38,658 bases of DNA. Source: a virus. The stretch is from the UHGV virus genome UHGV-0206453; one strand, written 5' to 3'. Positions 2,511 to 6,555 of this stretch are shown piece by piece. The notes beneath the pieces were generated by a model, which was not told the DNA's origin, did not search any database, and saw only the letters and a program-made list of their open reading frames with translations. Every line of letters starts with the position of its first letter. Position 1 is the first letter of the stretch. The translations under genes were made by a program, and so were the position numbers.

Positions 2511-3227
<717 letters not shown>

Positions 3228-3315: not shown

Positions 3316-3525
<210 letters not shown>

Positions 3526-3563: not shown

Positions 3564-3643
3564 CATCAAATTAAACCACACCTATGGTGTATGCATTTAT
3601 TTGCATACATTCAATCAATTGTTATCTAAGGAAATACTTACAT

Positions 3644-3937
3644 ATGGTTCGTGCAAACAAACGCAACGAGGCTCTACGAATCGAGAGTGCGTTGCTTAAC
3701 AAAATCGCAATGCTTGGAACTGAGAAGACAGCGGAAGCTGTGGGAGTTGATAAGTCGCAGATCAGCAGGTGGAAGAGGGATTGGATTCCAAAGTTCTCAA
3801 TGCTGCTTGCTGTTCTTGAATGGGGCGTCGTCGACGACGATATGGCTCGATTGGCACGACAAGTTGCTTCGATTCTCACCAATAAAAAACGCCCGGCGGC
3901 AACCGAGCGTTCTGATCAAATACAAATGGAATTTTAA
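3644..3937 (+). CDS. cII: cII transcriptional activator
   Basis: Internal ATG of ORF 3584..3937; MVRANKRNEALRIESALLNKIAMLGTEKTAEAVGVDKSQISRWKRDW... matches lambda cII. Confidence 0.95.
   Translation: MVRANKRNEALRIESALLNKIAMLGTEKTAEAVGVDKSQISRWKRDWIPKFSMLLAVLEWGVVDDDMARLARQVASILTNKKRPAATERSDQIQMEF
3652..3665 (-). promoter_or_regulatory. pRE cII-binding motif TTGC-N6-TTGC
   Basis: Plus-strand GCAAACAAACGCAA inside cII codons 3-7 equals minus-strand TTGCGTTTGTTTGC, as at lambda pRE. Confidence 0.55.
3881..3909 (-). terminator. oop-type antisense RNA terminator inside 3' end of cII
   Basis: Minus-strand GC-rich hairpin (CGCTCGGTTGCCGCCGGGCG) followed by TTTTTTATT, as in lambda oop; the oop promoter side has diverged. 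Confidence 0.5.
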
Positions 3938-3959: not shown

Positions 3960-4232
3960 ATGCGAAACAAAGGCTTTAATCCACCTGATACACACAAAGA
4001 AGTTAAGCGTTTGCGCTTCCTTCGTTCCATTGATGAAAGAACTCAAATCTCTTTTGTGAAAGTTGCCAGAACTGAGCTTCTGAAGGCTGAGGCGAGGGCG
4101 TTGCTCCCGTCTCTACCAAAAGAGGAGGGATATACGTTCATTCCAAACGCATTTCTGGAAAAGCTGCTCAAAGAAGACATATCCGTAAGTCAGTTTAACG
4201 ATGTTCTTAAGGTCTTTCGTCAAGGCAGGTAG
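3960..4232 (+). CDS. hypothetical protein (90 aa) between cII and replication initiator
   Basis: Internal ATG of ORF 3651..4232 preceded by GAGG; lambda homology ends just after cII. Confidence 0.55.
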   Translation: MRNKGFNPPDTHKEVKRLRFLRSIDERTQISFVKVARTELLKAEARALLPSLPKEEGYTFIPNAFLEKLLKEDISVSQFNDVLKVFRQGR

Positions 4233-4234
4233 TT

Positions 4235-5182
4235 ATGAGCAATACAGCAAAAATCTACGATTTCAGCGCCGCACACGAGCGCAGGAGCAACAGGATGGAG
4301 AACCAGAAAACTGGTTACATTCCGTTGTACCGGAGCATTCTGAAACAGTCATGGGCGAAAGATGTTTATCTTCGCACCCTGTGGGAAAACCTTCTCCTGA
4401 ATGCCGCCAGAAAGCCATACAAAGCGAATTTCAAAGGTCATGAATGGCATCTGCAACCCGGTCAACTGGTTGTGACAGCAGCTGATTTAGGTCTTCAGTT
4501 ATGCGACAGGCATGGCAAGCCAGCAAGCCGCGATCAGGTTGAGCGGATGCTTCAGGTTTTTGTGAAAGAGGGGATGATCACCATTGATGGAGAGAAGCAA
4601 AAAGGTCGTGTGATCACCATCACAAATTACCATGAATATGCTCAAAAAATGGACAATTCACCCGCACATGAAGCCGCACAAACAACCGCACATGACGCCG
4701 CACATGACGAAGCCAGTAATGGCGCGGCTTTCAGCGTACATGCCGCACATGAAAGCGCACATGAAGCCGCACAAACAACCGCACATCATGAACAAGAAGG
4801 TATTAACAAGAATATAAATAATACCCCCCTACCCCCCAATGGGGGAGGCGATGGGCAGGTTAAACCTGAACGTCGCAAGGCAGAACGAATCGATTACGAA
4901 TCCTTCCTGAACGCCTACAACACCGAAGTCGGTGACAGACTTCCACACGCTGTTGCGGTCAACGAGAAACGCAAACGCCGCCTGAAGAAAATCATCCCGC
5001 AACTGAAAACGCCAAACGTGGACGGTTTCAGAGCGTATGTCAGGGCGTTTGTGCATCAGGCCAAGCCGTTTTACTTCGGAGACAACGACACGGGCTGGAC
5101 GGCAGATTTTGATTACCTGCTGAGGGAAGATTCGTTAACGGGAGTACGGGAAGGGAAGTTTGCAGACAGGGGGATTGCATGA
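4235..5182 (+). CDS. replication initiator, lambda O / P22 gp18 family, with internal origin repeats
   Basis: 315 aa; N-terminus [10 protein letters not shown] resembles lambda O MTNTAKILNF; central repeat-encoded [17 protein letters not shown] segment; followed by helicase gene. Confidence 0.8.
4662..4790. repeat. two clusters of four 12-bp iterons (CCGCACATGAnn) inside the initiator gene; putative replication origin
   Basis: ccgcacatgaag/ccgcacaaacaa/ccgcacatgacg/ccgcacatgacg at about 4662-4709 and a similar set at about 4743-4790, followed by AT-rich stretch and C6/G6 inverted repeat. Confidence 0.7.
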
Positions 5183-6555
5183 GACAGGATATCGAAGCGA
5201 GCGTTATCGGTGGCCTGCTGATTGGTGGATTAACACCAACTGCCAGTGACGTTCTGGCAACGCTTGAGCCGGAAGCGTTTTCAATTCCGCTCTACCGGAA
5301 AGCCTTCGAGGTTATCCGCAAACAGGCGCGAAACAGAAACCTAATCGACGCGCTGATGGTTGCCGAGGCGTGCGGAGAGGAGCATTTCACGTCAATCCTG
5401 ATGACCAGCAAAAACTGCCCGAGTGCCGCAAACCTGAAGGGATATGCCGGAATGGTCGCGGATAACTATCACCGCCGTCTGGTGCTGGAAATCATGGATG
5501 AAATGCGTGAACCAATTCAGAGCGGAACCATCGACGCATCAAGTCAGGCGATGGATGAACTTGTAAAACGGCTCTCAGCCATCAGAAAGCCCCGTGACGA
5601 GGTTAAACCTGTACGGTTAGGGGAAATCATTACTGACTACACTGACACGCTTGACAGGCGTCTGAGGAACGGAGAAGAGTCAGATACCCTGAAGACCGGA
5701 ATCGAAGAACTTGATGCCATCACCGGAGGGATGAACGCGGAAGACCTGGTGATAATCGCTGCTCGTCCTGGTATGGGGAAAACCGAACTGGCGCTGAAGA
5801 TTGCCGAAGGCGTTGCAAGTCGCGTTATTCCTGGTTCTGACGTCCGGCGCGGAGTGTTGATTTTCTCGATGGAAATGAGCGCATTGCAGATTGCAGAGCG
5901 AAGTATTGCCAACGCCGGGAGGATGTCGGTTAGCGTGCTGCGAAATCCTGCATCGATGGATGACGAGGGCTGGGCACGTGTTGCTAACGGCATGAGTCAG
6001 CTTGCAGATTTGGATGTATGGGTAGTCGATGCCTCGCGGTTATCGGTCGAAGAAATACGCTCAATCGCAGAACGGCACAAACAGGAAAATCCAAACCTGT
6101 CACTCATCATGGCGGATTATCTTGGCCTGATTGAGAAGCCGAAAGCAGACCGCAACGACCTCGCAATTGCTCACATCTCAGGAAGCCTTAAGGCGATGGC
6201 GAAAGACCTGAAAACGCCTGTTATCTCCCTGAGTCAGCTTTCGCGCGATGTTGAGAAGCGACCAAACAAACGCCCGACAAACGCAGATTTGCGTGATTCA
6301 GGAAGCATTGAACAGGACGCAGACTCAATCATCATGCTCTATCGGGAAGCAGTATATGACGAGAACAGTAGCGCCGCACCATTTGCTGAAATCATTGTGA
6401 CGAAAAACCGTTTTGGCTCGCTTGGTACGGTTTACCAGCGGTTCTGTAACGGACACTTTGTTGCATGTGACCAGGATGAAGCCAGACAGATTTGCACAGC
6501 ATCAAATGCACCTGCTGCGCGTGGCAGACGATATGCACAAGGGGCTGACGTATGA
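5179..6555 (+). CDS. replicative DNA helicase, DnaB family (P22 gene 12-like)
   Basis: 458 aa; Walker A GMGKTE, DnaB C-terminal motifs; start overlaps initiator stop. Confidence 0.9.

Follow-up and report, generated by a model that had tools for sequence, protein, structure and literature searches.

Distinct iterons lie within gene O or gene 18 of each of the phages lambda, P22 and L (PMC8022706). In phage L, six imprecise repeats were proposed to be the likely origin of replication (PMC8022706), and the corresponding GenBank record, MW013503, annotates them as a putative origin (rep_origin). The locus described here is contained in a stretch of 38,658 nucleotides (hereafter, the window) that represents a P22-like (Lederbergvirus-like) temperate phage or prophage of Escherichia coli, the closest relatives of which are CUS-3 and Kapi1 (approximately 96% identity over 59–64% of the first 25 kb). 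No origin is annotated in the CUS-3 and Kapi1 records, though both carry essentially the same initiator gene, and our searches of the literature brought up no paper on it. Comparison of the locus with its relatives suggests that it is very likely the replication origin of a P22-like temperate phage, lambda-like in build and furnished with a different kind of iteron. The principle of such an origin is already known from lambda, P22 and phage L, and a site of this sort is to be expected in these phages; the layout in two arrays is unusual.

The order of the early genes in the window is the same as in lambda and P22: the gene for the cI repressor (2511–3224, minus strand), cro (3325–3525), cII (3584–3937), a small open reading frame (ORF) of 90 amino acids (aa) (3960–4232, plus strand), an O-like replication initiator gene encoding 315 aa (4235–5182, plus strand), within which the origin would lie, and a gene for a phage DnaB-type replicative helicase resembling P22 gp12 (5179–6555, plus strand), which overlaps the stop codon of the initiator gene. 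Residues 20–132 of the initiator match the Pfam family Phage_rep_O (PF04492; E = 3.6e-15; bit score 56.7, cut-off 28.7), the protein matches PHROG 345, "replication initiation O-like" (E = 1e-100), and the O genes of CUS-3, Kapi1, JEP4 and many Stx2a phages are 98–99% identical to its gene, which is assigned to the O type by sequence. The product of the helicase gene matches Pfam DnaB_C (E = 9.5e-78) and DnaB (E = 4.5e-13), and is also matched by the NCBIfam models DnaB and phage_DnaB, yet below their curated cut-offs. The small ORF, which belongs to PHROG 2519 (function not assigned), has its stop 2 nt upstream of the initiator start codon. Over its final 35 residues it bears a weak resemblance (Pfam E = 0.047) to the beginning of a different type of Phage_rep_O domain, and it may be the fossil of a replaced initiator N-terminus.

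The first-pass annotation had reported eight copies of a 12-bp repeat, arranged in two clusters of four, in frame within the initiator gene and encoding repeated 11-residue segments, and each of these points is borne out. The left array (4662–4709, plus strand) consists of four direct repeats starting at 4662, 4674, 4686 and 4698 (CCGCACATGAAG, CCGCACAAACAA, CCGCACATGACG and CCGCACATGACG), and the right array (4743–4790, plus strand) of four starting at 4743, 4755, 4767 and 4779 (CCGCACATGAAA, GCGCACATGAAG, CCGCACAAACAA and CCGCACATCATG), with a gap of 33 nt (4710–4742) between them. Read in the frame of the ORF 4235–5182, the arrays encode aa 144–154 and aa 174–184, in which a regular xxAH pattern recurs. 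The longer consensus proposed earlier, CCGCACATGAnn, applies to five of the eight units only, two others being CCGCACAAACAA and one CCGCACATCATG; the core is (C/G)CGCACA, which takes the form CCGCACA in seven units and GCGCACA in the one at 4755. The region that contains both arrays (4662–4790) corresponds to aa 143–185 and directly follows the DNA-binding domain, as in lambdoid origins. Iterons of the lambda/P22 type are approximately 18–20 bp long, contain an internal dyad and form one array of four to six, whereas the units found here are 12 bp long, all direct, devoid of a conserved dyad and distributed over two arrays.

The total number of CCGCACA copies in the window is unremarkable (10, with 5.2 expected). 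Their clustering is far beyond chance: seven copies of one 7-mer are packed into 130 nt of a single strand, and none of 200 Markov-simulated sequences exceeded four. Nowhere else in the window is there a tandem array that has a period of at least 8 and more than three copies. In this region, neither promoter-like sites nor an Rfam family was identified, and terminator-like sites were not in excess. Two ORFs overlap the repeats in other frames (4632–4817, plus strand, 61 aa; 4658–4795, minus strand, 45 aa); their translations are repetitive, and they look like by-products of the periodic DNA. Most of the database proteins matching the N-terminal domain of the initiator (P0001–P0072) are labelled "partial" and end at approximately 150–210 aa, near the repeats, which may reflect the breaking of short-read assemblies at this point.

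The arrays are followed by an AT-rich stretch (4791–4823, plus strand; 6 G+C in 33 nt, 18%), which is presumed to be the DNA unwinding element. The earlier observation of AT-rich sequence after the repeats is thereby confirmed: this is the least stable 33-mer of the gene, its stability is in the lowest 0.14–0.2% of the window, and it adjoins the repeats in the manner of the easily melted stretch of lambdoid origins. Relatives have kept the sequence CATGAACAAGAAGGTA of this element at the level of DNA, and the stretch is bracketed by a 7-bp inverted repeat, GGTATTA (4799–4805) and TAATACC (4819–4825). An inverted repeat of the form CCCCCC...GGGGGG had also been counted among the parts of the origin. 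It does exist, as CCCCC (4833–4837), AAT and GGGGG (4841–4845) in a short C-rich/G-rich segment (4824–4848, plus strand; C6 TA C6 AAT G5 A GG, encoding PLPPNGGG), but it is short and weak and lies outside the iteron module. As a significant structure on its own, the CCCCC/GGGGG hairpin was considered and found to be unsupported, since its folding (-7.5 kcal/mol) is no better than that of shuffled sequence (z = -0.22).

A BLAST comparison with phage genomes revealed that the initiator gene has a mosaic structure. HK97, Nil2, mEp213, BTP1 and many other phages have in common with the window only the segment from 4808/4821 to 5182 (94–97% identical) and the helicase. This segment comprises the C-terminal domain module of the initiator (4821–5182, plus strand), presumed to be the helicase-recruiting part. 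The upstream half of the gene in HK97-type phages encodes a different N-terminal domain and contains, in the same place, four dyad iterons of approximately 19 bp (e.g., ATTAGCCAAGTCGGCTAAT); in these phages, which combine the C-terminal module with another N-terminal domain and other iterons, a DnaB-type helicase gene always comes next. Klebsiella and Yersinia phages have only the N-terminal domain, the repeats and the AT-rich stretch in common with the window, up to approximately position 4818 and with 75–80% nucleotide identity, and continue with a lambda-type C-terminal domain and a lambda P-type partner. As this mosaic sharing shows, the N-terminal domain, the repeats and the AT-rich stretch are inherited as one module, and the C-terminal domain and the helicase or loader as another; such two-module inheritance follows the classical logic of lambda. 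The C-rich/G-rich repeat is common to HK97 and S.Inf 5-2, which carry other iterons, and is absent from the Klebsiella and Yersinia relatives with the same iterons; to judge from this distribution, it belongs to the C-terminal module and marks its start. Its place is taken in lambda-type C-terminal modules by the lambda palindrome (GTCAGAG...CTCTGAC), and origins seem repeatedly to feature an inverted repeat beyond their AT-rich region, in a form that goes with the type of the C-terminal module. Many relatives (e.g., L018, L011, L134, L347 and L351) possess perfect palindromes of 8–10 bp just past the arrays; the loop is TAAC or TAAA, and the arms come in at least nine different sequences. Of 126 distinct segments, 48 have arms of at least 9 bp, compared with 3 of 630 shuffles, and in the window only GGTATTA/TAATACC is present at this place.

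The evolution of the units was followed in two sets of loci. Prophage loci were collected from other Enterobacterales genomes (47 loci, 45 of them usable), the N-terminal domains of which are 60–83% identical, and 160 viral loci from IMG/VR were reduced to 108 distinct ones. Two core types are present in the 45 genome loci, namely type A, CCGCACAT, in which the Ala codon is GCA, and type B, CCG(C/A)GCAT, in which the codon is GCG or GAG, and all six or eight units within one locus are of one core type. The Ala codon ends in A in 132 of 133 cases in the type A loci and in G in 112 of 114 cases in the type B loci; the entropy at this base is accordingly 0.06 bits (type A) and 0.13 bits (type B), whereas 20 conserved 4-fold codons of the N-terminal domain in the same 45 loci average 1.40 bits. 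Over about 150 distinct relatives, the Ala codon of the units is fixed in its third, synonymous position. Core positions 2–8 are invariant across relatives, one synonymous site included, and the core is kept in hosts from Escherichia to Xenorhabdus, whereas synonymous sites elsewhere are saturated. Positions 9–12 of the unit are free to vary, with a likeness of 0.55 between the arrays of one locus versus 0.51 between loci. Because these unit tails are not homogenized, the invariance of the core points to selection and not to recent homogenization; for the same reason, gene conversion between the arrays was rejected as the cause of both the core invariance and the symmetry of the array sizes. 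Among 63 near-identical loci, copy-number variation is zero and substitutions are found mostly outside the cores. The repeats are thus under purifying selection at the level of DNA.

A different origin of the repeats, as functionless products of neutral slippage or unequal crossing-over in a tolerant linker, is in keeping with the tolerance of linkers for insertions and with the existence of versions with 3+3 and with 4+4 units, but it is hardly credible given the 63 near-identical loci without copy-number variation, the invariance of the core amid saturated synonymous sites, a spacer length that is fixed at 33 nt and the covariation of the core with the N-terminal domain, the last two of which are described below. 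The in-frame position of the units, their regular xxAH peptide and the conservation of the spacer motif SNGAA as a peptide could also mean that the repeats matter as protein only, in the form of an Ala/His-rich linker (metal-binding or flexible) with the DNA periodicity as a by-product. This reading is very improbable, since the Ala codon keeps one base at its synonymous position, since Glu (GAG) replaces Ala (GCG) with the DNA core kept, and since relatives of the same architecture encode unrelated peptides, e.g., PDEPCDKPSD and VEGSDEPP. Gene 18 of phage L, whose product has 22% identity to the initiator (E = 4e-10), contains 3+3 units of 11 bp (TGTCCAACGGA) that are read in three frames and yield zero peptide repeat. 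Because the units fall in three frames, the repeat must act at the DNA level in phage L, and a purely peptide-level explanation is by the same token ruled out for the family.

The N-terminal winged-helix DNA-binding domain of the initiator is predicted at 4292–4639 (plus strand), with aa 99–112 as the predicted recognition helix. An AlphaFold2 model of the domain (mean pLDDT of 72.5, and 80–90 in the core), which is best taken as one of moderate confidence, has the form of a winged helix-turn-helix (wHTH) with helices at residues 82–88 and 99–112 and a beta wing at residues 115–129; these helix boundaries would place residues 82 (Ala; codon 4478–4480) and 100 (Asp; codon 4532–4534) at the N-termini of the two HTH helices. 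The best Foldseek matches in the PDB are generic wHTH regulators and are weak (E ~1e-2), and a sequence search found no homolog of solved structure (best E = 0.11).

Residue 100 is Asp in 21/21 type A loci (CCGCACAT) and His in 24/24 type B loci (CCGCGCAT), a covariation that is confounded by phylogeny, since the tree shows no more than about two independent switches. Residue 82 is Ala or Pro with CCGCACAT and Ser or Thr with CCGCGCAT throughout the 45 genome loci. The rule for both residues is upheld in all 108 distinct loci from IMG/VR, which form an independent set, and therefore covers 153 distinct loci in all. One type B locus, L020, is nested in the type A clade, which implies at least two switches of core type. 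The core base that differs is at position 5, where A accompanies Asp100 and G accompanies His100; pairing of Asp with adenine and of His with guanine would be chemically reasonable, and the covariation predicts a specificity-determining contact. The sequence of the repeats is, in sum, matched to the N-terminal domain, just as the C-terminal domain is matched to the helicase or loader, and the eight repeats are almost certainly binding sites of the phage's own initiator.

The spacer between the arrays (4710–4742, plus strand), which encodes (E) + 10 residues, contains the motif CCAGTAATGGCGCGGCT at 4713–4729. In addition to this spacer of the window, spacers were noted at 5684–5716 in L134 and in L363/L364. 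The spacer is 33 nt long in 45/45 genome loci, 44 of which were scored directly; the remaining locus, L019, was scored as 3+4 with a 21-nt gap, which is a detection artefact, the real layout being 3+3. All 45 genome loci have a 3+3 or a 4+4 layout, 3+3 being the commonest, and a change between the two occurred at least four times on the tree of N-terminal domains. Likewise, the 108 distinct viral loci have a 33-nt spacer and arrays of equal size, with one or two exceptions; among the loci numbered L007–L053 and L137–L296, a genuine 4+3 layout is present in L232, and the other possible exception is a locus scored as 0+3. At 4-fold sites within the initial 20 nt of the spacer, entropy is low, and the peptide motif SNGAA is conserved.

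The same layout extends to distant relatives. In S.Inf 5-2, whose N-terminal domain is 53% identical and has Gln at position 100, the units are CAyCCGATGAAC, and in ENT1, with 46% identity and Lys at position 100, they are GTCGAAGG / GACGAGCC; the layout is kept in both. Despite a protein identity of only 22%, the spacer motif CCAGTAATGGCGCGGCT is nearly unchanged in phage L gene 18. The phage L family also retains the 3+3 arrangement and the spacer length of 33 nt, including two loci in which the spacer sequence has been replaced. The Lactobacillus phage phiAT3 has five units of 11 bp. The window itself shows the bipartite order of phage L, that is, n units, a 33-nt spacer with CCAGTAATGRCGCGGCT, n units and an AT-rich stretch, and this order is kept across initiators down to 22% identity and at least five iteron specificities. 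The start-to-start spacings of 66, 69 and 81 bp have no common helical phase; helical phasing between the arrays was therefore rejected, and it is the length of the spacer that is conserved.

One tentative interpretation, which we regard as possible but somewhat doubtful as a whole, is that the bipartite layout constitutes a distinct origin geometry and is not a cosmetic variant of that of lambda. As part of this interpretation, an initiator dimer may bridge the units of equal rank i in the left and right arrays with the spacer looped, an arrangement that could account for the n+n symmetry as well as for the constant length of the spacer, and a single residue of the recognition helix (Asp, His, Gln or Lys at position 100) may set the specificity of the origin. 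As an alternative to bridging, the conserved spacer sequence could be a site for some host factor.

Sites bound by the initiator may serve regulation (titration, handcuffing, autoregulation or a block to transcription) instead of initiation, with the true start of replication elsewhere. Iteron plasmids use such repeats for copy control as well, and two arrays at a fixed distance could pair with each other, which lends this explanation some plausibility. We nevertheless consider it unlikely, because the arrays abut the least stable AT-rich segment of the gene, occupy the exact position of the proven origin of lambda and of the P22 and HK97 iterons, and are the only iteron-like arrays in the window, and because no conserved extra copy is found near the promoter or the start of the gene. 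The one additional copy of CCGCACA in this part, at 4269–4275, 34 nt into the initiator gene, was examined as an autoregulatory site and rejected, as it is neither conserved nor covariant with the iteron type in relatives. In S.Inf 5-2, a copy of this type is present with the same N-terminal peptide despite different iterons; the copy at 4269 is probably a chance occurrence.

We return to the reading of the locus as an origin. The first-pass annotation had likened the arrangement to lambda, with an origin inside the initiator gene; selection on the units, their covariation with the initiator, the shared module and the AT-rich stretch support that view through comparison, while the weight that had been given to the C-rich/G-rich repeat does not hold. 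For binding, its stoichiometry, unwinding, helicase recruitment and the start of replication at the repeats, we infer the following course. The N-terminal winged-helix domain of the initiator would bind each 12-bp unit at its core, (C/G)CGCACAT, with the recognition helix (aa 99–112) in the major groove and Asp100 reading the A at core position 5. Binding is probably by one domain per unit, head to tail, because 3+3 is the commonest layout and the units are direct repeats; because the units lack dyad symmetry, the lambda model of one O dimer per iteron is not directly transferable. The eight sites, in two arrays of four placed 33 bp apart, would give rise to a nucleoprotein complex analogous to the lambda O-some, which would strain and open the adjacent AT-rich stretch (4791–4823). 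The C-terminal domain of the initiator would then bring the phage DnaB-type helicase (5179–6555) onto the opened DNA, after which host primase and polymerase would take over.

These results assign a probable origin to a widely distributed replication module, unannotated in the CUS-3 and Kapi1 records. The module is found in CUS-3, Kapi1, JEP4, approximately 48 Stx2a-converting phages of E. coli O157 and many Enterobacterales prophages. The rule that links Asp100 with CCGCACAT and His100 with CCGCGCAT is a testable specificity rule, and predicts which of these phages can activate the origins of one another or compete for them. With its fixed 33-bp spacer and equal arrays, the layout suggests an initiation complex of a different build from the lambda O-some; such a complex would not overturn current understanding, and the bipartite layout, the spacer and the residue rule are modest additions to it.

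Among the known systems, lambda resembles the present locus in several respects. Its initiator has a Phage_rep_O N-terminal domain, the binding sites lie inside the initiator's own gene directly after the part for this domain and code for a linker, the repeats are adjoined on their right by an AT-rich stretch and then by an inverted repeat, the N-terminal domain recognizes the origin while the C-terminal domain is matched to a helicase or loader partner, and the gene is located in the rightward early operon after cro and cII. Lambda differs in having four dyad iterons of approximately 19 bp, each for an O dimer, in a single array, whereas eight 12-bp direct repeats without a dyad are present here in two arrays with a fixed 33-nt spacer; in addition, the partner is a phage DnaB-type helicase here, but P with host DnaB in lambda. 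P22 gene 18 and HK97 gene O are similar in that the initiator is accompanied by the phage's own DnaB-type helicase (gp12 and P, respectively), and in HK97-type phages the C-terminal domain is 94–97% identical, the C-rich/G-rich inverted repeat included; P22 and HK97 differ in their N-terminal domain and in their four dyad-symmetric iterons of approximately 19 bp (ATTAGCCAAGTCGGCTAAT in HK97). Iteron plasmids (pPS10 RepA, F RepE and R6K pi) also combine direct repeats, a winged-helix initiator arranged head to tail and an AT-rich element, but their initiators are of an unrelated family, and their iterons are 17–22 bp long and lie outside the rep gene. The closest architecture is that of phage L gene 18. 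Its units differ in being 11 bp long (TGTCCAACGGA) and mutually out of frame, and its origin is likewise putative; it consists of three units, a 33-nt spacer with CCAGTAATGACGCGGCT, three further units and an AT-rich stretch, in the gene of a distantly related initiator that is followed, as in the window, by a DnaB-type helicase.
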